Made by a program: the position numbers and the translations under genes
The notes under the pieces: model-generated
What the model was told of the DNA's origin: nothing
What the model saw: the letters and a program-made list of their open reading frames with translations, nothing else
Database searches by the model: none
In this document: positions 4,136 through 36,328 of the stretch, piece by piece
How positions within the stretch are numbered: the first letter of the stretch is position 1
How the letters are laid out: each line of letters begins with the position of its first letter
Source of the DNA: a virus
Lineage: Duplodnaviria; Caudoviricetes
Strand: one strand, 5' to 3'
Length of the DNA stretch: 53,335 nt
IMG/VR virus record: IMGVR_UViG_3300032326_001284
Span: 1 to 53,335 of that record

Positions 4136-5137
4136 ATGAATTTAGCGATAAATGGAACTTGTGCTAAAGGTTGTTCATTTTGTTTTACTAAAGAAGACGC
4201 AAGGTTAAAACACACATTAGGTGAAATGGATATAGAAATGGTCGATAAAATTATCGACCATTATCGTCTAAATAACTCTAATGAAGAAATTACAATACTT
4301 GGGGGTGAACCAACACAGCATTCAAATTTTATTGGGATATTAGATCATATTTTTGCTAGAGGGTTTAAAGTAAACCTTGTTAGTAATTTTTTATTTAGTA
4401 AAACCACCAGAGAATACTTGATAGAAAATATTAAGAACATTAGGTGGGCGTTCCCCAATGCAGCAGAACTTAATGAGAAAAATAGAATGGTTTTATTTAA
4501 AAAAAACTATCTAGAAATTTATAAAGCATATGCAAATACATGGGGATTTGAAAATCACCCAAGACTTTACTTGGCATTGACTATGTCAAGCGATTGGAAG
4601 AGTAGAAATTTCTACGAATATGTAAAGTGGATGTACCATGAACTAGATGGTAAAATAAACGCAATAAGACTTGGATTAGATTTGACAGGAACTTATCTCA
4701 TCAACAATAAAGAGATGGGAGAAGAAATGACCAAAATACTTAAATTTGGTTTGTATAATCAAATAAAGATCACATCAGATTGTCAGGTACCCCCATGCTT
4801 ATGGGAGGGCAAAACAAAAAAAGCTGTTCAAGAGAATTCGTTAAACTTCGCAACCTTTAAAATACCTGAGTATGAAACAATATGCGGCTTTATGCCGTTG
4901 GATATTTTTCCAGACGGAAGTTCAATTCACTGTTACCCGTTAGAAGATAAAGTAAAAATCAAAAACGTTTTGGAAATATCGGGGGAAAATAGTATATTAG
5001 GTCTGAGGGAAGAGTTTGATAAACTCTATATCGATAATCATAAAAATTATTCAATCCCACAGGATTGTTTAGATTGTGTTTTTTATAAAACAGAATGTAA
5101 CGGAATATGTGGTGGTTGTATGGAAGGTAGCAAATGA
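4136..5137 (+). CDS. Radical SAM protein with SPASM-like C-terminus
   Basis: CAKGCSFC (CxxxCxxC), GGEP motif, C-terminal CxxC-x5-C-x3-C-xx-C. Confidence 0.9.
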   Translation: MNLAINGTCAKGCSFCFTKEDARLKHTLGEMDIEMVDKIIDHYRLNNSNEEITILGGEPTQHSNFIGILDHIFARGFKVNLVSNFLFSKTTREYLIENIKNIRWAFPNAAELNEKNRMVLFKKNYLEIYKAYANTWGFENHPRLYLALTMSSDWKSRNFYEYVKWMYHELDGKINAIRLGLDLTGTYLINNKEMGEEMTKILKFGLYNQIKITSDCQVPPCLWEGKTKKAVQENSLNFATFKIPEYETICGFMPLDIFPDGSSIHCYPLEDKVKIKNVLEISGENSILGLREEFDKLYIDNHKNYSIPQDCLDCVFYKTECNGICGGCMEGSK

Positions 5138-6174
5138 CAAAGAAAATATTTTCAATACCGTTTAATCCGATGTTAACGGAGGATATGTTTATAAATGAGT
5201 TTTATCCATTCTTAGAAAGAAATAAAGAGTGGATCTATGACATTTATTTCACATGTAGAATCCCACCATTCACGCAGGATGCGATGGGTGCAGTATTCAA
5301 AGAAGAGGACAGAGATATTGTATTTGAAAATGCAATGATAATTCAAAAGTCTTTGGGGATTAAAATAAGTGCAACATTTAACAATGTTAACATCTCACCA
5401 AATTTTCAGAATTATAAATTGTTTGTTGATAATCTAAAACCCTTATATGAAAAGGGTTTGAGGTGCATAACCATACCACATGGTCACTGGGTTGCAATGG
5501 GGTTAAAGAAACATTTTCCTGAGATGGAAATTAAAAATACCATATTAAGAAAGGTTGCAACTGGACAAGACTTTTGGTATAATGCTGATCAAGGGTTTGA
5601 TTATATTAACCTTGATAGAATTTTAATGAGAGATGTCGAAGAACTAAAAAACATCAAAAGAGCACAATTAAAATACCAAGAAGATAAAGGTAGATATGTG
5701 AAAATATCGTTGCTTGTAAATGAGGGTTGTTTGGGTAGATGCCCAGTAATGGATGAACATTACACATACAATAACTTAAGAACAAATAATGAGTTACCAT
5801 ACTTTCATCATGAGATATCTAAAGTAACTTGTGAGCATAAATGGGAAAAAGATATCAATGCATTCTTTTTTAAGACTGGGACAATTCCACCATTTAAAGA
5901 AGAGTTTGATGAGTTCTTGGAATATATCGATGTGTTCAAAATGCATGGTAGGGATAGCTTCAATCGTTTAAAAGAAACGATGGAAATTGTTGACTCATAT
6001 GTTCAGGGTAAAGAAGTTCTATCAGATACATCACACATTTATCTTGACGGTATTCCTCATGAAGAACTAAAGGGTTGGAGAAATAAAATAAAAAAATGTA
6101 AATTCCAATGTTGGGATTGTAACTATTGTGATATTGTTGCAGACCATAAAAAGAAATCATATGGACTTAGTTAA
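5134..6174 (+). CDS. Peptidase U32-like Fe-S protein
   Basis: NEGCLGRC, FKMHGR (cf. U32 KIEGR), INLDR, C-terminal CKFQCWDCNYC. Confidence 0.7.
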   Translation: MTKKIFSIPFNPMLTEDMFINEFYPFLERNKEWIYDIYFTCRIPPFTQDAMGAVFKEEDRDIVFENAMIIQKSLGIKISATFNNVNISPNFQNYKLFVDNLKPLYEKGLRCITIPHGHWVAMGLKKHFPEMEIKNTILRKVATGQDFWYNADQGFDYINLDRILMRDVEELKNIKRAQLKYQEDKGRYVKISLLVNEGCLGRCPVMDEHYTYNNLRTNNELPYFHHEISKVTCEHKWEKDINAFFFKTGTIPPFKEEFDEFLEYIDVFKMHGRDSFNRLKETMEIVDSYVQGKEVLSDTSHIYLDGIPHEELKGWRNKIKKCKFQCWDCNYCDIVADHKKKSYGLS

Positions 6175-6826
6175 ACATATCGACGATTCAATTGAATGGG
6201 GCGAATTAGAAGTATCTAAATTGACTCAAGATATTTTAGATATACATGGAATCACCAGTAACAAGGTGAGATCTTTTCTCAATAACATTTGCAACATTGA
6301 TAATGCAACATATCTTGAGGTTGGTGTATTTCGAGGGGCCACATTCTGTTCCGCCATTTATGGTAATAACATTTACTCAATCGCAATAGATAATTTTATG
6401 TCGCCTAATCTAACACCTAAAGGAGTGAGCCAAAAATTAGGTAACTATTATAAACACAATATTGATATTTTACCACAAGAAGATTTTTTAAATAATGTTA
6501 AAAAATTTGGCGACGTTAAAAAAATATCAGTATATAAAACAGATTATCACACATTTGATTTTAAATCATTATCAAATGTGGACATCATTTTTTATGATGG
6601 TGAAACAAAATACCATGACCAATATGTTGCATTAACAAATATGTTACCGATTTTCTCAGATGAAACAATTATTATAATGGATGATTGGAATTGGGATAGT
6701 GGAGCCTTTGAAAAATTTGTTGAGGACAATAATTTATTTATAAAACACTCTAGACAATTATTCACATCTGGAGAAGATTCTAAAGACTTTTGGAATGGTT
6801 TAGGTATATTTTTAATAGAGAGATAG
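6161..6826 (+). CDS. Class I SAM-dependent methyltransferase (Methyltransf_24-like)
   Basis: YLEVGVFRGAT, IFYDG and MDDW motifs; ATG at 6161. Confidence 0.85.
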   Translation: MDLVKHIDDSIEWGELEVSKLTQDILDIHGITSNKVRSFLNNICNIDNATYLEVGVFRGATFCSAIYGNNIYSIAIDNFMSPNLTPKGVSQKLGNYYKHNIDILPQEDFLNNVKKFGDVKKISVYKTDYHTFDFKSLSNVDIIFYDGETKYHDQYVALTNMLPIFSDETIIIMDDWNWDSGAFEKFVEDNNLFIKHSRQLFTSGEDSKDFWNGLGIFLIER

Positions 6827-6855
6827 TTGATTATGTAACATTTTTTGTTTATATT
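6827..6855 (+). promoter_or_regulatory. Promoter TTGATT-N17-TATATT upstream of the tRNA and TonB receptor
   Basis: Consensus spacing, ends 14 nt before the tRNA. Confidence 0.6.
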
Positions 6856-6869
6856 AATAATAATTGTAA

Positions 6870-6959
6870 GGGGAGGTGGGTGAGTGGTTTAAACCGACAG
6901 CCTCCGAAGCTGTTATTGGACTTAACATTCAATCGAGAGTCCGAATCTCTTCCTCCCCG
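6870..6959 (+). tRNA. Class II (Ser-like) tRNA with CCG anticodon
   Basis: Acceptor GGGGAGG/CCTCCCC plus G73; D-arm GGT-GAGTGGTTTAA-ACC; anticodon arm ACAGC-CTCCGAA-GCTGT; variable stem ATTGGA/TTCAAT; T-arm GAGAG-TCCGAAT-CTCTT; CCA not encoded. Confidence 0.85.
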
Positions 6960-6992
6960 CAATTTTATAAACTTTTCTTAAACAAAAACAAA

Positions 6993-8765
6993 ATGAGAAA
7001 AACAATCACAATGCTATCGCTAATGTTAGCACTATTGTTTACTACCACTATGTCATTTGGACAAAAAGGCAACAGTACAACTCAAAAAGACACAGCTTCA
7101 ATAGAATTAAAAGAAGTTGTTGTTGTTGGTGGCACCAACTATCAGGTGCAACAAGTAATAAAAAATCCGAAAGTATATTTGAACTCTGCACGCATTCAAG
7201 AAACAAGTCCGGGACAATTAAGTCCATATGTTGGTGCGTTTACTGGTAATCAAGTTGACCAATCAATTAATGGTATTAGGGTTAATAACGGTTTGTTTAG
7301 AACCGGGCCAAACCAATATTTTGGATGGGTTCCATTAGAATTTACAAAGTTAATTTCTATTACAGATGGTGGTAATATTGGTGGAACAATCGAAAGAAAG
7401 GTTGGGGTACAATCATCACATGTTGGATTAAATTATGTGGGTGGTACGGATGGATTTAGCCAATCAGCATCTTATAAAGGTAAGAAATTTGGTATTGGTT
7501 TTAACAACATCGATTATGGTAATGTTATATCTCCAGATAGTACATTTCAACACAGTGCTTACAACCAAAAAGCATTGGTGTCTGAAGCCAACTGGTCTTC
7601 AACACAAAAAACAACTTTAATTTTTTCACAATCAAATGATTTAGAAAGAACAGATAGATGGAACGGTGGTTTCAGAAGTTCTGGTTATCAAAGACCGGCG
7701 GTTTATACGTGGGAACTACAAAGATATTTGTTTGTTAATCATGAGATGAATTTAAACAGACTACGCGTGAATCTTGCATATCAAAATAGTGCGGAAGATA
7801 TTTTAGATGGGACAAAAAAAGTTGCTAGTCGTCTAGAAGCATATACCGCAAATCTTGAATATCAATTACCACATTCATTTAGTATATATTCAACAAACAC
7901 AATTGAAAAAATCAGATATGAAAATGGTTTAGTTGGCGGGGTATCAAACGATGATTATAAAACAACAAAGCATGGTATTCGTTGGATTAATGAAATTGGT
8001 AAAGTAAAAGTTTACACAAGTTTAGGATTAAAGAATGTTCAAATAACTGATATTGATCCATTTAATGGTTTTGAATATTCAGCAATTGTTGGATACAAAG
8101 GTCTATTTGCAAGTTATGACAATAGCTTAAACGCACCAAGTTATTTGATGATTAAACAAGCAATGACAAATGGTAGAGGCACACAATTACCAAACCCGGA
8201 TTTAATACAAGAGAGAGGTCAAACATATCGATTTGGTTATAAAAGAAGTAATTTATATTTTGATGTTTACTTCAAAGAATTAGATGATGCATTTAATGTA
8301 ACCGTACTATCGACAAACGTATTTAGGACCGATAACATTGGTGGTGTCTCAGTAAATGGCACAACTTTAGGTTATTTTAATGATAGTTTGTTTGGAACTA
8401 AACTAGGTGTGAATGCTAGAGCAGAATATATTTATGGTGTTAAAAGATTAACAGGAACAACAGAACCAGTTGATAAAACAGTACCATATTTTGGCTACAT
8501 CAAACTAAATTATAATAAGCTATGGGTGGAAGGTAGATATCAACCAATTGATCAATCTTTATCATTTGCAGATAGAAATGATGTTCGACAATTTTTACAC
8601 AATAAAGGTGTGAGATTGGTGAACATTGGATACACCACAAAGTATAAAAATTTAGAATACACAATGTTGTTTTATAACTTATTTAATGATGCTAGTAGAG
8701 TCTGGGGGTCATCAGTAGATTTACCAACAAGAAGTATTAATTTAAATCTTAAATATAATTTCTAA
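6993..8765 (+). CDS. TonB-dependent outer-membrane receptor
   Basis: Signal peptide ending FG/Q, LKEVVV TonB-box-like segment, plug-like INGIRVNN..FRTGPNQY, NPDL..E and NLFN motifs, terminal Phe; the ORF-track start at 6876 lies inside the tRNA. Confidence 0.85.
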   Translation: MRKTITMLSLMLALLFTTTMSFGQKGNSTTQKDTASIELKEVVVVGGTNYQVQQVIKNPKVYLNSARIQETSPGQLSPYVGAFTGNQVDQSINGIRVNNGLFRTGPNQYFGWVPLEFTKLISITDGGNIGGTIERKVGVQSSHVGLNYVGGTDGFSQSASYKGKKFGIGFNNIDYGNVISPDSTFQHSAYNQKALVSEANWSSTQKTTLIFSQSNDLERTDRWNGGFRSSGYQRPAVYTWELQRYLFVNHEMNLNRLRVNLAYQNSAEDILDGTKKVASRLEAYTANLEYQLPHSFSIYSTNTIEKIRYENGLVGGVSNDDYKTTKHGIRWINEIGKVKVYTSLGLKNVQITDIDPFNGFEYSAIVGYKGLFASYDNSLNAPSYLMIKQAMTNGRGTQLPNPDLIQERGQTYRFGYKRSNLYFDVYFKELDDAFNVTVLSTNVFRTDNIGGVSVNGTTLGYFNDSLFGTKLGVNARAEYIYGVKRLTGTTEPVDKTVPYFGYIKLNYNKLWVEGRYQPIDQSLSFADRNDVRQFLHNKGVRLVNIGYTTKYKNLEYTMLFYNLFNDASRVWGSSVDLPTRSINLNLKYNF

Positions 8766-9825: not shown

Positions 9826-10299
9826 ATGGAAAAAATAACATTAAAATTAGGAGACGTTCTACAATTAGAGAGCGAAATAAATGGGTATGTTGAACCACAA
9901 TCTGGCGATCAGATCTATGAAGGTTTCACAAAACAAAACTTATCTATCATTTTGAAATATGAGTTAAGTGATTTTTCAACAACACTTAAAACTGAAAGAA
10001 CCAAAATTGATTCATTAAGAGATGAGTTAATTAAAAAATATGGAGAAGATGATGGTAAGGGTGGTTTATGGGTAAAAATGCATAACGAAGTGAAAGACGA
10101 AGAAGGTAGTGTAATTGGGAAAGTTTTTAATCCAAATTATCTTGAATTTGATAAAGAGTATGGTACTCTTTTAAATCAAGAAATTGAACTTGAATACCCC
10201 GAAATTACTAAACAAGATCTAAAAGACGCGGGAAAAACAAAAGACAAGTATACAGTCTTGTTTAAATTAATCAAAAAAGAAAAAGAGGGAGCTAAATAA
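9826..10299 (+). CDS. Hypothetical phage protein
   Basis: 157-aa ORF preceded by TTTACT-N17-TATATT. Confidence 0.7.
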   Translation: MEKITLKLGDVLQLESEINGYVEPQSGDQIYEGFTKQNLSIILKYELSDFSTTLKTERTKIDSLRDELIKKYGEDDGKGGLWVKMHNEVKDEEGSVIGKVFNPNYLEFDKEYGTLLNQEIELEYPEITKQDLKDAGKTKDKYTVLFKLIKKEKEGAK

Positions 10300-10310
10300 G
10301 CTCCCTTTTT
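10286..10310. terminator. Bidirectional hairpin terminator at convergent overlapping stops
   Basis: AGGGAGCT-AAATA-AGCTCCCT flanked by A and T tracts. Confidence 0.7.
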
Positions 10311-11398
10311 ATTTCTATTTTCATATTTCCAATTGAATATTCTCCCGGTTCGTAGTGAGGTATTGACATTCTAAGTGTTCTTAATGTTGTGATGTCATCA
10401 TCTGTAAATGGTTCCATCTCATAAACCATAACGTCAACGGTGTCTGTTAGTACAAATTTCGACCTTAAATCATATCGAGTATGCTTCTGTTCATTATTAA
10501 CATAGTCCTCTGGAATCGTCCCTAAATCGATTTTATCAAAAAATGGTTCTACCTCCATCAGTTTGTTTTTATTTCTTGTTGTTAACCCCATTGAGAATGT
10601 ATTAAATTTAAATTCTTTTTCTTCCCAATATCTCATTTGTACGAATGCACCATATTGAACTCCCCATTTCCTTACAAAGTTTCTATTTGAGGAAACTTCA
10701 TATCTAAGTCTATCTTTTTTGTAATCATCACTAAATCTAGATGTTTGTGAAACAAAGTGATAAACAATTGCACTATCACAAGTTTTTAATTCATAACCTT
10801 TTAATTTAGCTCTCAATAAAAAATCATCATCCTCACAGAAAGCAGGAACAAAACTAAAGCCATCGAAACCACCAACCTCATCAAACATTTTTTTGTAGCC
10901 ACTCATAAAGAAAACAGCACCATCGTATATGTTATCACTTTGGTTCCACTGTTTAACGAATTCATTGAATTGATAATGATCAAAATTATCGAAACCAGAG
11001 CCCATATCTAATAATACTTTACCCGGACGTTTATGCCCCTTAAAGATTGGTGGTTCAATTGTTGTATATGATAATAACATATTTGGTTTTAGTAATCTAT
11101 TAATAGCTTCTAAGAACCCCTCACCAATAACCATATCATTGTGAATGAGAACTATCTTTTCAGTATCAACTAATTTAATACCAGCGTTGTATGTGTCTGA
11201 AAACGTTAAACGATCATCATCATGTATAAAAGAAAGATACTCATCGTCTAATGAGTCAAGCCATTCTTTTGTTCCGTCACTTGATCCACCGCTGCTTATT
11301 GCTAATGGGGCATTTGGATATAACTCACGAAGATGTTTATAACACTCTTTTGTTAAATCTAATTTATTATATACTGCAAGTACAAATGTTATATCCAT
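10292..11398 (-). CDS. Glycosyltransferase family 2
   Basis: SSDGT, HNDM and EDDD motifs; ATG (MDITF) at 11398. Confidence 0.85.
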   Translation of the reverse strand: MDITFVLAVYNKLDLTKECYKHLRELYPNAPLAISSGGSSDGTKEWLDSLDDEYLSFIHDDDRLTFSDTYNAGIKLVDTEKIVLIHNDMVIGEGFLEAINRLLKPNMLLSYTTIEPPIFKGHKRPGKVLLDMGSGFDNFDHYQFNEFVKQWNQSDNIYDGAVFFMSGYKKMFDEVGGFDGFSFVPAFCEDDDFLLRAKLKGYELKTCDSAIVYHFVSQTSRFSDDYKKDRLRYEVSSNRNFVRKWGVQYGAFVQMRYWEEKEFKFNTFSMGLTTRNKNKLMEVEPFFDKIDLGTIPEDYVNNEQKHTRYDLRSKFVLTDTVDVMVYEMEPFTDDDITTLRTLRMSIPHYEPGEYSIGNMKIEIKRELI

Positions 11399-12249
11399 TA
11401 TAAATTTTTTATGTAATTTTCTAATTTGTCTGAAGGAGACCAACCTAGTCGGTCAATCGCATCGTTGTTAACTCTAATTGTTTCTCGGTAGTTACCTTTT
11501 TGTTCGGTCATGTAAACTCTTACACAACTAAATCTTTCAATAAACATATTCGCAACATCATTTATAGAGTAGTTTTTACCAGTTCCAAGTTCCCAAGCGT
11601 CGTCATGTTGTTCATTACTTTCAGCGATCTTGATTAAACCATCAACAATATCATCTATGTGTGTAAAATCTCTTCTTTGTTTACCGTCACCTATAATAGT
11701 GATTGGATAATTCTTTTGAACTTGTCCTCTCCATAAACCAATTACCGCAGCCATATGTGAATCAACTAATTCACCTGGGCCATATACGTTATAGAATCTA
11801 ACTATCTGTGCATTTAAATCATAAACTTCTTTATACATCTTGATCCATTCTTCACCCATATGTTTAGTCATAGCATATGGTGACTTCATTGGTATGTGCC
11901 ATCTTGAAGATGATCCAGAATATATTAATTTTGATTTATTCTTAAGCGCATAGTCAACCACTTTCTTTGTACCATCAACATTAACAGAGAATGTTAACAT
12001 CGGATTTTGAAATGATGGTTGTATTCTACTCAATGCCGCTAGATGAAAAATATATGCGTATGGTTTATCTTCAATGTTATCCATAGCTCTCACGTCACCA
12101 CCTAAGAAGTTACAACCATTTGGTATTTTCGCTTCATTACCTATTGATAAGTTATCGATCACATCAACTTCATAACCTTTTTTAATTAATGCCAAAGATA
12201 ATGCATGTCCAATAAATCCACAACCCCCAGTTACTAAAACTTTTTTCAT
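11398..12249 (-). CDS. NAD-dependent epimerase/dehydratase (GalE-like SDR)
   Basis: TGGCGFIG, YAMTK, RFYNVYGP and RDFTH motifs. Confidence 0.92.
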   Translation of the reverse strand: MKKVLVTGGCGFIGHALSLALIKKGYEVDVIDNLSIGNEAKIPNGCNFLGGDVRAMDNIEDKPYAYIFHLAALSRIQPSFQNPMLTFSVNVDGTKKVVDYALKNKSKLIYSGSSSRWHIPMKSPYAMTKHMGEEWIKMYKEVYDLNAQIVRFYNVYGPGELVDSHMAAVIGLWRGQVQKNYPITIIGDGKQRRDFTHIDDIVDGLIKIAESNEQHDDAWELGTGKNYSINDVANMFIERFSCVRVYMTEQKGNYRETIRVNNDAIDRLGWSPSDKLENYIKNL

Positions 12250-12866
12250 ATTGAGCTATAAAGATTGTTTTGTTTTTCTTGTTTATCAATTGTTTTGTGA
12301 TGTTGTATACAATATACTTCATCAGTTGGTAGTGTTGAAAAGTATTCACCACCAATTATTCTTTCATGTACCCTACCATACCATGACATTTTGGTTCTAT
12401 AGATTCTCCCCTGCATATCAGGAAAATTAACCCAATTCTTTTCATTAATATTCCATCCCCATTTACTGATATGTTCTTCAGTTAATCCATTAACAGTATT
12501 GATTCTTGGTACAAATATTAAATCCACATTTGGGTTCATCTCAAGAATCGTACTTATATTTTTAACCAAGTACTCATCAATCATTTCATCAGCATCAAGT
12601 TGAAATGTATAATCACCAGTACAATATTCGTTTAACTTATTTTTCCAATCAGCAAAGTTATTGTTCCAATCAAATGATCTCCAAGTTTGAACATTTGGTT
12701 TGATATTAAATGGTAGCAAGAAATCTAAAACATCTTTACTACCATTTTTCTCGTCGAACAAGATCACAATCTCATCCTGTATTCTTTTGTGTTCCAATAA
12801 GAAAGGAACTAATCTTTTTATTTCATCTAATTCATTACATACTGTAATTGCAAATGATATTTTCAT
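12246..12866 (-). CDS. Glycosyltransferase family 2
   Basis: QLDADE and VHE motifs. Confidence 0.85.
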   Translation of the reverse strand: MKISFAITVCNELDEIKRLVPFLLEHKRIQDEIVILFDEKNGSKDVLDFLLPFNIKPNVQTWRSFDWNNNFADWKNKLNEYCTGDYTFQLDADEMIDEYLVKNISTILEMNPNVDLIFVPRINTVNGLTEEHISKWGWNINEKNWVNFPDMQGRIYRTKMSWYGRVHERIIGGEYFSTLPTDEVYCIQHHKTIDKQEKQNNLYSSI

Positions 12867-14116
12867 TAATTAATTTTTGTTAACTTAGGTAAAACTAATT
12901 GAGTTTGTTTTGGTACACTTGGAACATCTTGAATTAATTTTTTAAATTCTTCTCTCATAGCATCCATTGAAAATGCCTCAGCGTTTTCTAATCTTAATGC
13001 TTCAGATCTTTCTAAAAACTTTTCATAGTCTTTATGTACCAATTTGAAAACCTCAACCGCTTCATTATAATTTGCTGTAAACCATTTTGAATCTTTTAAA
13101 ACAAAAGCGTCTACCGCACTCTCATGAACTTCTGTAAGTTTACCACCGATCATGATTGCTTTATTCATTGGTAAGAAGTCTTTATGTCCAGACCAATTAG
13201 ATGCTATGATTGGTTTACCGGTCATTGTGAACTCTAATAATGGTCTACCGAATCCCTCACCTTTAGTTAAAGTAACCATCGATTTTATTTTAGGGTGATT
13301 ATATACTTCATTCATCTCTTCATTGGTTAAATCACCAAACAATAGATAAATCGATGGAGGATTTTTTATATCTTTTACTGTGTCTTCTATCTTTTTTCTA
13401 AAGTTTTCTCTTTCTTTGATTGAGAATGTTGCTGAAGATGTTTTTAAAACAAGTGCCGGCTTATTTTCAGCATCACTGAATGCTGTTGCGAAACACTTGA
13501 TTAACATACCCACATCTTTTCTATCTTGTCCTAGATCTCCTTTTAACCAATGACCAACAAATAGAAACGCGAAGTCTTCTTTGATATCTAAATCAATTCC
13601 TTTGTATGTGTTGTTGTAAACATTTAGATCGACGCCTTCAAATAAAACACTAATAGGTGTTTCTATTTTATATTGTTTAATAAGTTTACCAGTATTTTTT
13701 TCGTTCTCATTGTATACTGTTGATACTAACACATCTCTAGAAAATATAGAAGTTGTTATAACTTTATCCATTCTGTTACAACCATCTACCCAATCCTTTG
13801 GAGCGACGGTGGTTTCAATACCAGCAGTTATTCCAATGTTAAATTTACCGACCTTTTGAAATTCATTTGGCACTGTTACTTGAACATATATGTCTGGTGT
13901 TTCCGAAAGCGATGTGATAATGTTTTCCTCAATCCACTTATGAAATTGGTTATCGTTCTCTAATGCAGTTAAAGGAGTAACCCCCCAACCACAACTATCT
14001 ATTTTAATATCAAACAAATCCATTTCATACAATGCTTGTAATAGATCTCTTGAATGCGCACCGTAACCGCTTCTTGTTTTTACAGGTCCTCTAAATAATA
14101 ATGTTTTTTTGCTCAT
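12866..14116 (-). CDS. Glycosyltransferase family 4 (GT-B)
   Basis: SGYG and GEGFGRPLLE motifs. Confidence 0.88.
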   Translation of the reverse strand: MSKKTLLFRGPVKTRSGYGAHSRDLLQALYEMDLFDIKIDSCGWGVTPLTALENDNQFHKWIEENIITSLSETPDIYVQVTVPNEFQKVGKFNIGITAGIETTVAPKDWVDGCNRMDKVITTSIFSRDVLVSTVYNENEKNTGKLIKQYKIETPISVLFEGVDLNVYNNTYKGIDLDIKEDFAFLFVGHWLKGDLGQDRKDVGMLIKCFATAFSDAENKPALVLKTSSATFSIKERENFRKKIEDTVKDIKNPPSIYLLFGDLTNEEMNEVYNHPKIKSMVTLTKGEGFGRPLLEFTMTGKPIIASNWSGHKDFLPMNKAIMIGGKLTEVHESAVDAFVLKDSKWFTANYNEAVEVFKLVHKDYEKFLERSEALRLENAEAFSMDAMREEFKKLIQDVPSVPKQTQLVLPKLTKIN

Positions 14117-15471
14117 ACTATTTTATATAAATCGAATCTTTTTCTAGGTTTAAAATTATCTAAAGTTTGTTCAATACCTTGGATCATTTTATCACACATT
14201 ATTTTATTTGATAAGTTATTAATTATAAATTCCCTACCAGCTAAACCTTTTTCTTTTCTTTTCTTTTTACCAAACTTATACATTTTCATAATAGCGTTTG
14301 ACACATCATTGTCATTAACTCTATCATCAAAAATATATGGTGTAGGTATAGAACCATTTAAGTTTATTGCTGATGGCCATACTGGAATAACCCACTCACC
14401 ATGTTGTTCTTTATTGTATTTGTCTTTATCGTGCATGGAACCGATTTGAATGTAATCATTTTCATTGTACGAGAAACCACATTGATCTTGTAATCCTCCA
14501 GTAACATTAACAATGATCGGCGTACCAGCCATTAATGATTCTGCTGTGGTTAAACCAAAACCTTCATTGTTTGCTATGTTAATTGTACAATCAACTGCGT
14601 TATAAAAATGATTTAGTTTATCTTGTTCTAATTTTAAATCAGTAAACTTTACATCATAGTTAGGGCAAATAGCTTCTTTAACCGCAACCAGATCCGTGCC
14701 ATTCTCGTCCATTGGATTTGTGTGCATTAACAACAAACATTTCTCAGCTTTTTCTTTTGGTAACTTATCACAGAATAATCTAAAAGAATATATAACATCA
14801 CTAGGTTGTTTTCTTCTTATGTTTCTATTGTTATAAAATAAAACAAAATCGTACTCTTTATCTCCGTGAATATAATTTTTAACATCATCGGACACGGAAT
14901 CGATTGGTTTGAAAACATCTGGATTAATACCATGTGGAACATAGCTTATTTGCCAGTCCTCTAATGGTTTATATGTTTCTTTCTCTTTTGACTTACCAAC
15001 TCTATGTACAATACCATACGTTTGTTTAGAGATACAACCTAACCAATCGCAACTCTCGTAGAAATTTCTATTGTATTTTGGATCTGGTAAATCATCCCAG
15101 ATGTGATAGTACAAGATTGGTGTGTGTTGTCTAATTTCATGTTCGTTATCATATAACCATTGCCAATAATGTGGGTCAGTAAAATGCAAAATAGCATCAG
15201 GCTTTTCGTCATTTAATAATTTTCTTAAAATATTCATATCACCATAACCATGATATGGAATAACTTTTAAATTGGCGTCTTTAACACCAGTTCTTTTTCT
15301 AACATCATCGTTGATGTCAATGATTTTACCATACTCTGGGTGTTTAATTGCTGCACCTAATTGAACCCAATCATATTTGTGTAATGTACCTAAAACAAAT
15401 TCTTTGGACATAGTAGCAATCCCTGATGTCATTCTTAAATCATCAGATAGTAATAATATTTTTTTCTTCAT
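14113..15471 (-). CDS. Glycosyltransferase family 4 (GT-B)
   Basis: VPHG, NRNIRRK and NEGFGLTTAES motifs. Confidence 0.88.
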   Translation of the reverse strand: MKKKILLLSDDLRMTSGIATMSKEFVLGTLHKYDWVQLGAAIKHPEYGKIIDINDDVRKRTGVKDANLKVIPYHGYGDMNILRKLLNDEKPDAILHFTDPHYWQWLYDNEHEIRQHTPILYYHIWDDLPDPKYNRNFYESCDWLGCISKQTYGIVHRVGKSKEKETYKPLEDWQISYVPHGINPDVFKPIDSVSDDVKNYIHGDKEYDFVLFYNNRNIRRKQPSDVIYSFRLFCDKLPKEKAEKCLLLMHTNPMDENGTDLVAVKEAICPNYDVKFTDLKLEQDKLNHFYNAVDCTINIANNEGFGLTTAESLMAGTPIIVNVTGGLQDQCGFSYNENDYIQIGSMHDKDKYNKEQHGEWVIPVWPSAINLNGSIPTPYIFDDRVNDNDVSNAIMKMYKFGKKKRKEKGLAGREFIINNLSNKIMCDKMIQGIEQTLDNFKPRKRFDLYKIV

Positions 15472-17043: not shown

Positions 17044-17251
17044 AGAACCAAAATATTTAACAGATTTTTTTATCTACAATAAAAGATATCATTGGTTTAT
17101 TATACCAACGGTAGTATTTTTTTATAGAAAAGATGTATTTTTTGAAACAGGTCTTTGCACCCCAGCCTTTGGGTTTAGTGTAAGGTGGTTAACATTTTTT
17201 ATAGGAGTACAATTTCAACGAAACGCATATTACAACAAAAATGGAATATAA
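17033..17251 (+). CDS. Hypothetical protein
   Basis: Overlap-coupled ORF. Confidence 0.55.
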   Translation: MTTKEPKYLTDFFIYNKRYHWFIIPTVVFFYRKDVFFETGLCTPAFGFSVRWLTFFIGVQFQRNAYYNKNGI

Positions 17252-17609
17252 AAATAAAGTTTTGCTTTATGGTTGTATCTGTCTGGCATTTCTAATATCA
17301 TATGGGTATGTTAAAGATTTAAATGAACGGCAATCACCCTTACCTGAAACAACTTCTTGTAGGGAAGATTCGTTACAGAATGTAATTAATCAATTAGTAA
17401 TTGATAAAGAGCATGATGAAGATGGCTGGGACGATAAAGAAAAAAGATACGAACAAGTAATTTTTGAATTTCAATATGGTTTAGATCATCTAAAAAATTA
17501 TCATCCAAAAGCTTACCAAGAATTCCATAGAATTATTGGTTACAAAGAGGACTACTCTCATGAGGTAGAAAGAGAAAACAAAAAAAGATTATATGAATAC
17601 ACTAGATAG
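17241..17609 (+). CDS. Membrane-anchored hypothetical protein
   Basis: N-terminal transmembrane helix. Confidence 0.6.
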   Translation: MEYKNKVLLYGCICLAFLISYGYVKDLNERQSPLPETTSCREDSLQNVINQLVIDKEHDEDGWDDKEKRYEQVIFEFQYGLDHLKNYHPKAYQEFHRIIGYKEDYSHEVERENKKRLYEYTR

Positions 17610-18747
17610 TAAGTACCAAGAACTATTACAAGACATTTTGGATAATGGTGTTGTTAAAAGAGATAGAACTGGTACTGGAACTATTTCAGTATTCGGTAGA
17701 CAAATTCGCCATAAAATGTCACAAGGGTTTCCATTATTAACCACGAAGAAAATGGCATGGAAAACAATGGTGACTGAGTTGATATGGTTTCTAAGCGGGA
17801 GTACCAACATTAAGTACCTTGTTATGAATGGTTGTAATATCTGGAATGGTGATGCTTATAAAAATTACACCAAAGAGGTAAATGAAATCATTGATGGCTA
17901 TATGTGTGGAGACATAATAGGGATGGATAATGATACTGAAAAATTGTTTAGTGATTCTGATAAGTTAACACCATTGACTCAAGAAGAATTTATTGATTTA
18001 ATAAAAAAAGATGATGAGTTCGCCGAGGAATGGGGTGAGTTGGGCCCAATATATGGTGCACAATGGAGAAGCTGGCATACTAAAACATTATTCAAAACAA
18101 CAATAAAAGATCCATTAAGTGGAAATGACACATATGTTGAAGGCGAAAAAGTAATTGATCAAATTCAAAACCTAATGGATGAACTTAAAACAAATCCAGA
18201 TAGTAGAAGATTGATGGTGAGTGCATGGAATGTAGGTGACTTAGATCATATGATACTACCGCCATGCCACTATGGCTTTCAAGTTTATACAAGATTATTA
18301 AATGGAGAAGAGAGATGGGAATTATTAGAAAAGAAAGTTGGTAAAGAAAAATTTGATTTAATGGTTGAAGATATAATGCCATTCGGTGGTGGATTAAGCG
18401 AAGAGTTACAATCGTACAATATACCATCAAGAGCAATATCTTTGATGTGGAATCAAAGATCGGTTGATACATTCTTAGGATTACCATTTAACATAGCATC
18501 ATATGGTTTATTATTGATGATGATTGCTGACGAAATGAATATGGTTCCTGATGAACTAATTGGCAACCTAGGTGATGTTCATTTATATTCCAATCACGTT
18601 GACCAAGCAAAAGAGCAAATAAAAAGAGAACCATATGATTTACCAACAGTACACGTTATGGATGGTATATTTTCATTTGGTGATAAAGATGTTATATTAG
18701 AAAACTATCAATCACATCCATCAATAAAAGCCCCATTATCAAATTAA
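17593..18747 (+). CDS. thyA: Thymidylate synthase
   Basis: DRTGTGT, GPIYGAQWR, LPPCH, QRSVD.FLGLPFNIASY and HLYSNH motifs. Confidence 0.97.
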   Translation: MNTLDSKYQELLQDILDNGVVKRDRTGTGTISVFGRQIRHKMSQGFPLLTTKKMAWKTMVTELIWFLSGSTNIKYLVMNGCNIWNGDAYKNYTKEVNEIIDGYMCGDIIGMDNDTEKLFSDSDKLTPLTQEEFIDLIKKDDEFAEEWGELGPIYGAQWRSWHTKTLFKTTIKDPLSGNDTYVEGEKVIDQIQNLMDELKTNPDSRRLMVSAWNVGDLDHMILPPCHYGFQVYTRLLNGEERWELLEKKVGKEKFDLMVEDIMPFGGGLSEELQSYNIPSRAISLMWNQRSVDTFLGLPFNIASYGLLLMMIADEMNMVPDELIGNLGDVHLYSNHVDQAKEQIKREPYDLPTVHVMDGIFSFGDKDVILENYQSHPSIKAPLSN

Positions 18748-23847: not shown

Positions 23848-24147
23848 ATGAACTTAACAACAAGAAAACCAAACAGTCAAAACGTAGTAACGTTTCAGGA
23901 ACTAGAGTTTCAATTACATCCAATGGGGATGGGAAAACAATGTATAGTACAATACTCAAATGGTTACGGAGCTAGCATTGTGCAAGGGCCACACACATAT
24001 GGCGGTAAAGATGGTTTGTATGAACTTGCTGTCTTTGGTAAAGATGGTGAAATAACATATGACACCACGATCACAAATGATGTGCTTGGTTATCTCTCAG
24101 AAGCAGAGGTTGAAAAAACATTATTAGACATTAAAAACTTAGATTAA
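23848..24147 (+). CDS. Conserved phage hypothetical protein
   Basis: NGYGASIV..GLYELAV..DVLGYL pattern common in large phages. Confidence 0.7.
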   Translation: MNLTTRKPNSQNVVTFQELEFQLHPMGMGKQCIVQYSNGYGASIVQGPHTYGGKDGLYELAVFGKDGEITYDTTITNDVLGYLSEAEVEKTLLDIKNLD

Positions 24148-24440
24148 TGACAACTGAAACTAAACTTAGGGCAGGAATTACAATGTCCTTGCTGGGATTA
24201 ATAATGGTAACATTTGCATATCTTGAAAAGGATAGAGTTCACATTGAAACTGTTAAAGAATTAATGCTGACACGGGATAGTTTATCTGCCCAAAAAATGG
24301 TATCAGATAGTTTACATGATGAATTATTTATTTCAAAAGTTGATAACGGTAGACATGAGTTTACTAGAGATTTTTTCTTTGGTAAACATCCAAAACTACA
24401 ATTAGAATATGAAAATTATTTAAATCACGAAACAGAGTAA
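24147..24440 (+). CDS. Membrane-anchored hypothetical protein
   Basis: N-terminal transmembrane helix; coupled start. Confidence 0.6.
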   Translation: MTTETKLRAGITMSLLGLIMVTFAYLEKDRVHIETVKELMLTRDSLSAQKMVSDSLHDELFISKVDNGRHEFTRDFFFGKHPKLQLEYENYLNHETE

Positions 24441-34223: not shown

Positions 34224-35138
34224 ATGGCTTTCGAATCATTTGAAGAACGATACGCCCGCCAAGAAAAAGAGCGGGAACAATTAAAATTAGAACAACAATT
34301 AAAAAAACAAAAACTCATGAAAACAATTGGTGCTGCGGTATTAGGATTTTTTACATTAACTTTTTTATTTTTCTCGTGTGAGAGAATTGATGCTGGTCAC
34401 GTAGGTGTTAAAGTTAATCAGTATGGTGATAATAAAGGTGTGGATGATGTTGTTGCGGTTACCGGTATGGTATTCTATAATCCATTTACTACTACAGTTT
34501 ACGAGTTCCCAACGTTTATTCAACACAAAGAATATAAAGGTGAAAATTCATTCGTTGTAAATAGTAAAGACGGTTCTGAATTTAGTGTGTCACCTATCAT
34601 GAACTACTCAGTTCAACGAGATAAGGTACCAGCAATTTTCAGTAAGTATCGAAGACCGCTAGAAGATATTGAAGAGGGGTTCTTAAAGACAGCAGTATAT
34701 GATGCGTTCAGATTAGCCACTAACAAATATACAGCAGATGAATTGATTTCAAACAGAGCTGTATTTGAAATTGAAGTTCGTAGATTATTAGATGGTCAAT
34801 TATTAAAAGAAGGGTTTGTTATTAATCAGTTTACATCTAATTTGATTTATCCTGAAACGTTTAAGAAATCAATTGAGGCTAAGAACAATGCAGTTCAAGC
34901 AGCATTGAGAGCGGAAAATGAGGTTAAGACAGCAGAAGCTCAAGCTAAGATCAAAGTAGCAACAGCTGAAGGTAATGCTCAAGCAATGCTAACATCAGCA
35001 AAAGCAGAAGCAGAATCAAATAGAATGAAACAACAAACGTTAACACCATTGTTGTTGCAACTAGAATATATTAATAAATGGGATGGTAAGCTGCCAGTAT
35101 ATGGTACTGCGCCAATGTTATATAAACCCGTTAACTAA
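34224..35138 (+). CDS. SPFH/band-7/prohibitin family protein
   Basis: Transmembrane segment, GHVGV, AEA-rich coiled coil, KWDGKLP. Confidence 0.92.
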   Translation: MAFESFEERYARQEKEREQLKLEQQLKKQKLMKTIGAAVLGFFTLTFLFFSCERIDAGHVGVKVNQYGDNKGVDDVVAVTGMVFYNPFTTTVYEFPTFIQHKEYKGENSFVVNSKDGSEFSVSPIMNYSVQRDKVPAIFSKYRRPLEDIEEGFLKTAVYDAFRLATNKYTADELISNRAVFEIEVRRLLDGQLLKEGFVINQFTSNLIYPETFKKSIEAKNNAVQAALRAENEVKTAEAQAKIKVATAEGNAQAMLTSAKAEAESNRMKQQTLTPLLLQLEYINKWDGKLPVYGTAPMLYKPVN

Positions 35139-35221: not shown

Positions 35222-36328
35222 ATGAGTGGAAATAAAATCGGGTGTTATAAACCCTGGGCGACATTATATTTTGAAAATAGCAGTAACAATGCTGGACCAT
35301 GCTGTTGGTTAACAGGACCAGAGTATGGTAAATTAAATAACGATTCTAATCTTAGTGACGTATGGGGAACCGACGCGTGGGAAAAGCTTAGAAGAGATAT
35401 GTACGAAGCTGATGGTGGATTACCAACACAGTGTCGTTTATATTGTAATGGTAAACAGACATATGTGAACCCATTATATCAGCAGTCCGTTATTGAATGG
35501 GCTATGAATGATAAGAGATGGGAGTTACCCCCACAAGGTTTAGCATTAACGGTTGCAAATGCTTGCAATCTAAAATGTAAGTTATGTTGGATATTTGATG
35601 ACTTCGATTATGTTATCCCAATGGAAGGAGCTGAAAGAGTTATTAAACAAATTAGAGAGTCTGTTATTCCTGGTCAGGATCATAAATTTGCAATGAATCT
35701 CGCAGGTGGTGAGGTGTTCTATGCCAAGCCAATGAGAAAGTTGGTCTACCAATTTGCTGAAGATCCAACCCTTGGTGATGAGTTCCAATTTGGATTCATA
35801 ACAAACTCAACAGTGTATGAAGAGAAGTGGTGGGACCTTATTAAAAATAAAAGACACGCTATCTGTGAGTATGTGACATCAGTCGATGGTTGGGATGCTG
35901 AAAGTTATAAGAACTATAGAGGTAGAGATATGTTTGATCAAGTTCTTACCAACGTTGATAAAGTAATCAAGTGGAGAGATGATCATATGGATACACATGG
36001 ATATTTTAACATCTTTATCAACTCACTGATAATGACAAAGACATATCCACATCTAAAAGATATTATTGATCTGTGGTGGAATAGAAATGTTAAACTACAA
36101 TTCATACCACTTATTGTACATTATAAGCCAGATGATTCTGAACAAGTATATAACATACCTGGAGTAAGAGAGGACTGTTTGGTTAAATTAAATGAGGCGT
36201 TAGATTATATTAATTCAAAAGAAATTACTGTTTGGTATCAAGAAGAAAACAGAAATTCAATTATTAGATCCCTTACAGATAACATTGAATATTTGGATAA
36301 TCTTATCAAGGGATCACAAACACGATGA
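35222..36328 (+). CDS. Radical SAM protein with N-terminal SPASM/twitch-like domain
   Basis: CYKPW..PCC..C..C before CNLKCKLC; GGEV and SVDG motifs. Confidence 0.88.
   Translation: MSGNKIGCYKPWATLYFENSSNNAGPCCWLTGPEYGKLNNDSNLSDVWGTDAWEKLRRDMYEADGGLPTQCRLYCNGKQTYVNPLYQQSVIEWAMNDKRWELPPQGLALTVANACNLKCKLCWIFDDFDYVIPMEGAERVIKQIRESVIPGQDHKFAMNLAGGEVFYAKPMRKLVYQFAEDPTLGDEFQFGFITNSTVYEEKWWDLIKNKRHAICEYVTSVDGWDAESYKNYRGRDMFDQVLTNVDKVIKWRDDHMDTHGYFNIFINSLIMTKTYPHLKDIIDLWWNRNVKLQFIPLIVHYKPDDSEQVYNIPGVREDCLVKLNEALDYINSKEITVWYQEENRNSIIRSLTDNIEYLDNLIKGSQTR

Follow-up and report, generated by a model that had tools for sequence, protein, structure and literature searches.

A phage transfer RNA gene with serine-type features and an arginine (CCG) anticodon, conserved among relatives and recurring in unrelated phages

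A transfer RNA (tRNA) whose body points to one amino acid and whose anticodon points to another raises the question of which amino acid it would carry and where it would be delivered. This question is posed by the 53,335 nucleotides (nt) of the IMG/VR virus record IMGVR_UViG_3300032326_001284, analysed here over its whole length and referred to as the window, in which a tRNA gene at 6870-6959 combines the long variable arm of a serine tRNA (tRNA-Ser) with the anticodon CCG. The window has a G+C content of about 32% and, because the record is rated 16% complete, is a fragment of an AT-rich freshwater phage of roughly 330 kb. An earlier note, made from the letters of this DNA, had suggested that the tRNA may insert serine at the arginine codon CGG. 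The explanation favoured here, to which the sequence comparisons give an even chance, is that the gene encodes a natural arginine-to-serine missense tRNA that would be charged by seryl-tRNA synthetase (SerRS) and serves as a functional, mobile accessory gene.

The tRNA gene is real. It is the only tRNA called by ARAGORN in the window (6870-6960, plus strand, anticodon ccg) and matches the Rfam model RF00005 over its full length with 54.3 bits (gathering score 29, E 5.4e-9). Its cloverleaf is based on ARAGORN, the Rfam model and counts of base pairs over nine sequence variants from related loci; the minimum free energy fold of the single sequence (z = -2.91) does not reproduce the whole cloverleaf. 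Beyond the elements listed in Table 1, it consists of a D-arm GGUG-AGUGGUUUA-AACC, whose stem has three base pairs (bp) and a G13-A22 apposition, an anticodon stem ACAGC/GCUGU, a variable arm AUUGGA-CUUAACA-UUCAAU and a 5-bp T-stem GAGAG/CUCUU. The CCA end is not encoded, and CAA follows directly after the gene. In the variable arm, five of the six pairs never vary among the nine variants and 96.3% of cells are paired. The complete tRNA with its anticodon, G73, the U after the two G of the D-loop, A37, the 6-bp variable stem and the unusual T-loop are all present as the earlier note had described them.

For the assignment of an amino acid, covariance models were built for serine (R1; 11 true tRNA-Ser, eight from two bacterial metagenome-assembled genomes (MAGs) and three from phages), leucine (R2; 16 sequences) and tyrosine (R3; four sequences), and no training sequence of R1 came from a pattern derived from the query. 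The window tRNA reaches 78.1 bits on the serine model and 33.0 on the tyrosine model, and is unlisted at E<=10 on the leucine model. Two other variants behave alike, with 73.8 bits for serine, 24.1 for leucine and 27.2 for tyrosine (L015), and 74.5 for serine, no listing for leucine and 28.0 for tyrosine (L009). Three true tRNA-Ser that were held out score 74.1-77.2 bits on the serine model, 12.4-15.5 or unlisted on the leucine model and 37.0-44.3 on the tyrosine model. Leucine and tyrosine can be discarded as identities on these scores and, additionally, because G73 and C35 exclude both (discriminator A73 in either case, and U35 for tyrosine). The geometry also differs from that of a selenocysteine tRNA, which has an 8-bp acceptor stem, a 5-bp T-stem, a long D-stem and the anticodon UCA: here a 7/5 arrangement, a 3-bp D-stem and CCG are found, and the window has no match to RF01852 (tRNA-Sec) at the gathering threshold.

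Serine identity is described as depending on the variable arm and G73, independently of the anticodon, while C2-G71 acts as an antideterminant for SerRS (PMC9976931). The window tRNA carries G73 and a G2-C71 pair, both invariant across the variants and both in agreement with what SerRS demands. A serine anticodon (NGA or GCU) is absent and replaced by CCG; since SerRS does not read the anticodon, this concerns the decoding class and not the charging. Closer parallels come from individual tRNA-Ser genes. The 6-bp variable stem begins one base past the anticodon stem, as in the tRNA-Ser(tga) of a related phage, and the D-loop AGUGGUUUA matches AGUGGUUGA of that phage's own tRNA-Ser(tga), which likewise has G73 and G2-C71; the whole D-arm is shared, base for base, with a cellular tRNA-Ser(tga). 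A C11-G24 pair in the D-stem is a minor SerRS element in Escherichia coli, and it occurs in the related phage's own tRNA-Ser, whereas the window tRNA has G11-C24. This is not disqualifying for serine, because true tRNA-Ser(tga) genes from a Solibacteraceae MAG (L219, L226) have G11-C24 as well. Taken by its sequence features, the body of the tRNA is of the serine type.

The T-loop UCCGAAU, which the earlier note had called atypical, could be taken for a mark of a special, non-ribosomal role. Among roughly 585 distinct tRNAs that were fetched independently, about 6 have C55. However, the same D-arm and the same T-loop are shared by tRNAs with ordinary anticodons, namely two phage tRNA-Ser(gct) (L181, L187) and a Solibacteraceae tRNA-Ser(tga) (L212), and the odd loop thus marks a small tRNA-Ser lineage and not the CCG form. 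A pattern scan of genomes for this D-arm together with a C55 T-loop returned three stretches, only one of which is a tRNA, and a CCG-specific C55 pattern matched 45 stretches, of which the 14 outside the window's phage family hold no tRNA at the match. As a separate observation, a tRNA array in a 151,869-bp viral contig (L177:6795-6972) includes an 85-nt class-II tRNA with anticodon CUU and A73 that has the D-arm and the C55 T-loop of the window tRNA (serine 60.2 bits, tyrosine 50.3), in addition to a 93-nt tRNA with anticodon UUU.

An alternative is that the molecule is an unusual arginine tRNA (tRNA-Arg), charged by arginyl-tRNA synthetase (ArgRS) through C35, G36 and G73 and completing a phage tRNA set that lacks a reader of CGG. 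Bacterial arginine identity is attributed to A20, C35, U36 or G36 and A73 or G73, with A20 as the main determinant for the E. coli ArgRS (PMC9976931). The last three positions agree with arginine in the window tRNA, but A20 is absent, as the earlier note had stated, with U20 unchanged in all nine variants, and the short class I variable loop of a tRNA-Arg is replaced by 21 nt between the anticodon stem and the T-stem. The setting of the gene is compatible with this explanation: a relative of 251 kb (G001) contains 22 tRNAs in an array at 45.6-50.6 kb (L083, L090, L102), including Ser(gct), Ser(tga), Leu, Tyr, Arg(tct) and Arg(acg), and its lone CCG tRNA lies 200 kb from this array, with no other decoder of CGG present; moreover, CGG means arginine in the window's phage, and long-armed tRNAs with arginine anticodons exist in phages. 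The array of G001 has A/U-preferring anticodons for nearly all amino acids, and no Ala or Val tRNA was seen in it.

The long-armed tRNAs with arginine anticodons are themselves informative. When the loop CUCCUAA was used for a control scan, long-armed CCU tRNAs turned up at 28 viral loci (L275, L276 with 18 near-identical ones, L288, L292, L295, L296, L299, L301, L318, L322), representing 13 distinct sequences of 85-93 nt. All 13 have A20 and most have A73 or U73, and their scores on the serine model are 38-58 bits, except for one of 72.9 bits with U73; they look like true arginine acceptors with a class-II-like arm. Phages thus appear to harbour two kinds of long-armed tRNA with an arginine anticodon, an arginine type with A20 (CCU) and a serine type without it (CCG), a contrast that is drawn from two pattern-limited scans. 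Both canonical phage tRNA-Arg of the G001 array, Arg(tct) and Arg(acg), also have A20, while the CCG forms have U20 or C20, and this difference weakens the case for charging with arginine. Furthermore, a single base change from tRNA-Arg(acg) would suffice to obtain a CGG reader, yet the body is serine-like at 78 bits, and 39 of 64 relatives manage without the gene. An arginine-charged tRNA is consequently considered rather improbable.

Whether the gene is functional can be approached through its conservation. With the protein of the upstream gene 5134-6174, 80 related loci were retrieved; 28 of these have a class-II tRNA at the same spot, all with anticodon ccg, in nine distinct sequences including that of the window and with no other tRNA in these loci. 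An anticodon-free pattern scan added three contigs with the same CCG gene. The cloverleaf is kept in the nine variants, with 95.7% of cells paired, and two pairs have changed on both sides (G-C to A-U in the anticodon stem, A-U to G-C in the T-stem); as the diversity of the variants is shallow, the pairing exceeds that of shuffled alignments only modestly. The mean identity to the window among the 28 carriers is 96.3% for the tRNA and 80.8% for the adjacent 699 coding bases, and in a deep clade whose neighbouring protein is 58% identical, the tRNA and the main form share 98.9% identity. The site is covered in 64 loci, of which 25 carry the tRNA and 39 lack it; a clean indel of about 100 nt, located between a conserved TTTTTTGTTTATATTA motif and the leader of the downstream gene, accounts for the difference. 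On a tree of the flanking gene, the distribution of the tRNA needs at least five changes, three of which are forced by well-supported branches. The gene is a selected but dispensable cassette that has often been moved or lost.

These observations bear on the possibility that the tRNA is a decaying or hitch-hiking copy of a tRNA-Ser whose anticodon has mutated and which has no function. Such a history would account for the absence of the gene from 39 of the 64 loci and for the A-C mismatch at position 27-43 in six of the nine variants. It is difficult to reconcile with a tRNA that is better conserved than its flanks, with compensatory changes and with a CCG anticodon that is invariant in 28 loci and three further contigs. 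CCG lies two base changes away from any serine anticodon; CCU is only one change from the serine anticodon GCU, yet it was never found on a serine-type body without A20 (0 of 13). We regard a functionless copy as very unlikely, and the conservation of CCG in the relatives, which the earlier note had proposed as a check, speaks against a decayed copy as well as against a sequencing error.

The meaning of CGG in the phage is the next point. Among 66 open reading frames (ORFs) of at least 80 amino acids (aa) in the window, comprising 15,810 codons, AGA accounts for 455 of 634 arginine codons and CGG occurs only three times, exactly at the three sites that the earlier note had named (Table 1). As the tRNA reads the rarest codon of the phage, it does not serve codon compensation. 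Reassignment of CGG from arginine to serine would place the codon in serine-conserved columns, and apart from the tRNA itself and the rarity of CGG nothing speaks for it. At identities of at least 60% across all genomes, CGG faces arginine in 87, lysine in 22 and serine in one of 137 cases; among differing codons opposite CGG the fractions are 0.64 for arginine, 0.16 for lysine and 0.01 for serine. The controls CGA (R 0.67, S 0.02), CGT (R 0.64, S 0.02) and AGG (R 0.71, S 0.01) behave in the same way, whereas serine codons face serine at 0.37-0.70 and arginine at 0.00-0.01. Judged by these alignments, CGG means arginine in the phage and the genetic code is unchanged, as the earlier note had expected from the codon contexts; a code change is regarded as extremely unlikely. 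The CGG codons of relatives cluster in large paralogous proteins, at 46.6-66.3 kb in G002, with at least 18 of its 37 CGG codons, and at 189-240 kb in G001.

The rarity of CGG also invites the idea of stalled-ribosome rescue, in which CGG is decoded inefficiently, if at all, by the host and even a reader charged with serine would help at the few CGG codons. In 10 related records, five carriers and five non-carriers with about 1.1 Mb in total, CGG is extremely rare (0.07-0.69 per 1000 codons), and AT-rich bacteria with an unassigned or barely used CGG are documented (PMC8629427). Nevertheless, CGG counts are similar in the non-carriers, CGG is common in a further carrier of a CCG tRNA with 63.6% G+C (G016, described below), and rescue would be an added purpose for the missense tRNA and not a different molecule. 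As an explanation in its own right it is improbable.

Similar tRNAs exist beyond the window's phage family. When viral contigs were scanned for a standard T-loop with the loop CUCCGAA lying at class-II distance from it, serine-type CCG tRNAs were obtained from three further records (G014, G015 and G016; four genes, Table 1), which score 70.6-82.8 bits on the serine model, 21.5-38.4 on the leucine model and 37.5-46.7 on the tyrosine model. All four have C20 and G73 and none has A20. The three records share only 0-3 weak protein hits with the window's family, and their tRNAs are 57-71% identical to that of the window. G014 and G015 are fragments of AT-rich large phages with a lone CCG gene each; that of G014 is located between two signal-peptide genes, one of which encodes a family-3 solute-binding protein. 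G016 is a temperate phage with terminal repeats and an integrase, and it has no full tRNAs other than its two CCG genes, with anticodon loops CUCCGGA and CUCCGAA. For its primase and integrase, the named homologues come from Actinobacteria, and a search of viral contigs with the primase found only G016 itself. In G016, CGG likewise stands in arginine columns: in the primase and integrase, 22 CGG sites face arginine at a mean of 0.44 and serine at 0.03, 58 sites with other CGN codons at 0.55 and 0.03, and 49 serine sites at 0.05 and 0.34, and one CGG column of the integrase holds arginine in 98 of 111 homologues.

Several other tRNAs were noticed. Calls of Ser(cga) by ARAGORN (L242:6093-6178(-), L245, L246, L250, L259, L267:10475-10560(+)) have four anticodon-stem pairs and a 9-nt loop CUCCGAAAY; by the U-turn rule, with a single U, their anticodon may be CCG, and they may be further CGG readers or ambiguous. 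An 89-nt long-armed tRNA with anticodon ACG (L249) is akin to the CCU class, and L251:3584-3670(+) holds an 87-nt tRNA with a Ser-like body, U73 and the anticodon GCA, possibly a cysteine tRNA built on a scaffold of class II. A 91-nt 'tRNA-Arg(ccg)' (L240) was rejected as serine-type, with only 32.2 bits on the serine model. A control pattern CTCGCAA (anticodon CGC) matched mostly the D-arm of initiator tRNA-Met among the matches listed.

For the missense tRNA, the following course can be proposed, in which charging with serine, decoding on the ribosome and purpose are all what we infer. The gene would be transcribed from the conserved upstream motif, jointly with the downstream signal-peptide gene, and the tRNA would be excised by host RNase P and 3' processing, with CCA added by a host enzyme. 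Host SerRS would then recognise it by its acceptor stem, its G73 and its long variable arm and charge it without regard to the anticodon, and CCG would pair with CGG on the ribosome, inserting serine where phage and host genes mean arginine. Decoding of this kind is feasible in principle, because an engineered E. coli tRNA-Ser(CCG) read CGG as serine in a reconstituted in vitro system (PMC13363220). Searches of G001-G004 (records 28-75% complete) revealed neither an ArgRS nor a class IIa synthetase core nor a CCA-adding enzyme, and the last was also missing from G016, which is rated complete; for charging and maturation, the tRNA would therefore rely on its host. The cost to the window's phage would be small because CGG is its rarest codon, and the benefit could lie in harm to the translation of host or competitor, in relief of stalling at CGG or in a controlled ambiguity. 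A wider claim, namely that at least four unrelated phage lineages (three AT-rich and large, one GC-rich and temperate) use seryl-tRNAs for deliberate arginine-to-serine mistranslation, is put forward tentatively and seems doubtful at present; if true, these tRNAs would be CGG devices directed against the proteome of host or competitor, or acting at particular stages, and would represent a new class of weapon or regulator that rewrites one codon in trans.

Several points weigh against the missense tRNA. The isotype models are home-made and small, come from two bacterial MAGs plus phages and not from the phylum of the host, and one true tRNA-Tyr reached 73.3 bits on the serine model. Since the window tRNA has three of the four determinants of bacterial arginine identity (C35, G36 and G73), it may be arginylated to some extent. 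CGG is not rarer in carriers (87 of 231,196 codons) than in non-carriers (31 of 109,096), and at identities of at least 80% the residues aligned with the carriers' CGG, where the codon is not itself CGG, are arginine in 36 of 40 cases and never serine; CGG therefore sits in arginine-conserved columns, and serine there would slightly damage the phage's own proteins. The gene is dispensable, as its absence from 39 of 64 covering loci indicates. RNA-library contigs from two studies span 6794-7064 and 6887-7064, from the tRNA into the next gene (four RNA-library runs, considered as contigs, so that depths and uncovered parts carry no weight), and lend weak support to co-transcription, because DNA carry-over is possible in such libraries. 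Finally, the two CCG tRNAs of G016 are hard to square with efficient serine insertion in a phage with 174 arginine-like CGG codons, and this phage speaks against avoidance of CGG as a general safeguard. The use of CGG in G016 thus keeps alive both arginine charging and roles outside decoding.

In the latter, the RNA would be made for its tRNA-Ser shape and not for decoding: as a decoy or sponge, it could soak up a toxin or nuclease directed against the arm of tRNA-Ser or the CCG loop of tRNA-Arg, or it could donate serine to a tRNA-dependent enzyme. There are precedents, as the toxin MenT3 selects tRNA-Ser by the long variable loop (PMC11162799) and phage tRNAs that counter tRNA-targeting defences are known (PMC10264068, PMC11464382, PMC13096335). 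A cassette gained and lost as often as this one resembles counter-defence genes, a decoy would explain why G016 tolerates two copies, and the rarity of C55 could be added. On the other hand, a decoy leaves unexplained the invariant CUCCGAA loop and the recurrence of CCG in four unrelated lineages; in anticodon loop, T-stem and acceptor, the molecule has the full canonical form of a tRNA used in translation, the D-arm and C55 are shared with ordinary tRNA-Ser, and the genes beside the tRNA include no recognisable toxin, nuclease or tRNA-dependent transferase. A role of this kind is considered unlikely, though it is the alternative to the missense tRNA that was weighed most seriously. Of the interpretation in the earlier note, the serine body, the missing A20, the unchanged code and the conservation are borne out, and the T-loop as a special mark is not.

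The site of the cassette is an insertion hotspot. On its left, 5134-6174 matches the N-terminal part of phrog_1458 (1-294) and 6161-6826 its C-terminal part (298-519), which contains an S-adenosylmethionine (SAM) methyltransferase domain; the two ORFs overlap by 14 nt, an arrangement kept in all relatives. A CGG-dependent +1 frameshift in this split gene was considered and rejected, as CGG is absent from the overlap and the second ORF begins at an ATG of its own (6161). The TTTTTTGTTTATATTA motif is read as a putative promoter; a sigma-70-like site at 6827-6855 comes from a scan that performed no better than chance (6 sites versus 4.3 expected), and no terminator was found in the promoter and terminator scan. 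On the right, a mechanically called ORF with a GTG start (6876-8765) overlaps the tRNA and hides it under a false N-terminal extension, which the earlier note had pointed out; the ATG at 6993 is the likely start, because its leader is kept in relatives without the tRNA. Three of these relatives have an ORF for a predicted membrane protein of 111 aa at the same hotspot (L003:7693-8028(+), L004, L053). The downstream gene is swapped among relatives, with 590 aa in the window and about 294 aa in many others (L003:8087-8971), and the long and short forms have only the signal peptide and leader in common; the short form can be read as ending in a terminal aromatic residue, like outer-membrane barrels. 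No tRNA-related, toxin or synthetase families were recognised among the neighbouring genes of the window or of G014-G016. Elsewhere in the window, radical-SAM proteins are encoded at 4136-5137 and 35222-36328, and a block of glycosyltransferase genes is located at 10292-15471(-).

Clues to the host are diverse. A blastn search with 6500-7300 against cultured phages gave no match, the thymidylate synthase (17593-18747) is closest to that of a Flavobacterium phage (59%), the upstream gene resembles cyanophage genes at 45%, and a cluster search with the DUF401 protein gave viral clusters only. A signal peptide can be read as Bacteroidota-like.

Table 1. Positions of the tRNA elements, neighbouring features and CGG codons in the window, and of serine-type CCG tRNAs in other viral records.
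Feature	Position	Strand	Basis or remark
Class-II tRNA gene, long variable arm, Ser-type body (isotype models), anticodon CCG	6870-6959	+	ARAGORN, Rfam, isotype models
Acceptor stem, 7 bp, GGGGAGG/CCUCCCC		+	sequence reading
D-loop GGUUUA = G18 G19, U20 U20a U20b A21; no A20	6886-6891	+	sequence reading
Anticodon loop CUCCGAA, 7 nt, U33, A37	6902-6908	+	invariant in 9 variants
Anticodon CCG	6904-6906	+	ARAGORN (tRNA position 35) and sequence reading
Variable-arm stem 6915-6920 with 6928-6933, loop 6921-6927	6915-6933	+	6 pairs, one G-U
T-loop UCCGAAU, C replacing the usual U at position 55	6940-6946	+	invariant in 9 variants
Discriminator G73	6959	+	sequence; invariant in 9 variants
Upstream gene, C-terminal part of phrog_1458, Methyltransf_24 domain	6161-6826	+	left border of insertion hotspot
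Conserved motif TTTTTTGTTTATATTA just upstream of tRNA	6841-6856	+	alignment; also in relatives without tRNA
Downstream gene, signal peptide MRKTITMLSLMLALLFTTTMSFGQ...	6993-8765	+	conserved leader starts right after tRNA
CGG, codon 30 of ORF 17241-17609	17328-17330	+	orthologues: CGG, CGC, AAT, AAA
CGG, codon 43 of ORF 24147-24440	24273-24275	+	CGG kept in G007 (non-carrier), G004, G002
CGG, codon 17 of ORF 34224-35138 (phrog_200 lipoprotein)	34272-34274	+	only aligned orthologue: CTT
CCG tRNA of G014	L243:4041-4128	-	37% G+C; 9% complete; 13 CGG codons
CCG tRNA of G015	L254:2299-2386	+	37.5% G+C; 14% complete; 3 CGG codons
CCG tRNAs of G016	L255:7310-7396 and 8186-8278	-	63.6% G+C; 37,449 bp, rated complete; 174 CGG codons

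Natural tRNAs with a mismatch between body and anticodon are the raw material of genetic code change and a possible tool of deliberate mistranslation, and the known cases comprise non-canonical allo-tRNAs, a few bacterial reassignments of CGG and the CUG codon of yeasts. In CTG-clade yeasts, the tRNA concerned is tRNA-Ser(CAG). A canonical, strongly conserved and horizontally moving serine-type tRNA for an arginine codon in phages would be a further case, and if serine is inserted at CGG, viruses would exploit the anticodon-blindness of SerRS. In the literature searched, no natural tRNA-Ser(CCG) and no phage case was found, although supplementary lists (PMC5389517 and surveys of huge phages) could hold some. 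The allo-tRNAs of Acidobacteria, Clostridia and Proteobacteria (Mukai et al. 2017; PMC5389517) are the nearest parallel: they are natural, have the SerRS elements including the long arm and carry mostly non-serine anticodons, among them the arginine anticodons GCG, UCU and CCU; those tested put serine at stop and sense codons in E. coli, and some are linked to mobile or toxin-antitoxin loci (PMC5389517). They differ in their 8/4 or 9/3 geometry and Sec-like D-arms (PMC5389517; for the geometry also PMC7609411), whereas the window tRNA is phage-borne, has a canonical 7/5 cloverleaf with all pairs supported and carries CCG; neither CCG nor CGG occurs in the text of that report (PMC5389517). Shulgina and Eddy 2021 (PMC8629427) describe CCG on a body of foreign identity in genomes with very rare CGG, as here; those cases have tryptophan identity (Anaerococcus, Finegoldia) and a codon meaning that is changed or undetermined, in contrast to the serine identity suggested for the window tRNA, its phage carrier and a CGG that is still arginine-like. 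Mistranslating anticodon variants of tRNA-Ser from yeast and human, and the engineered form (PMC13363220), indicate that a change of the anticodon alone redirects serine. Such variants are spontaneous, engineered or part of an established code change, unlike an accessory gene that a phage family has conserved and that is met again in unrelated phages. Counter-defence tRNAs of phages (PMC10264068, PMC11464382) share the accessory nature and a value that lies in conflict with the host and not in codon supply, but they are described as resistant copies of the targeted host tRNA with the same identity, while body and anticodon are mismatched here. Finally, the long-armed CCU tRNAs of phages resemble the window tRNA in the arginine anticodon and the long extra arm, and are distinguished by A20 and mostly A73 or U73 from a tRNA with U20, G73 and a clear match to the serine model.

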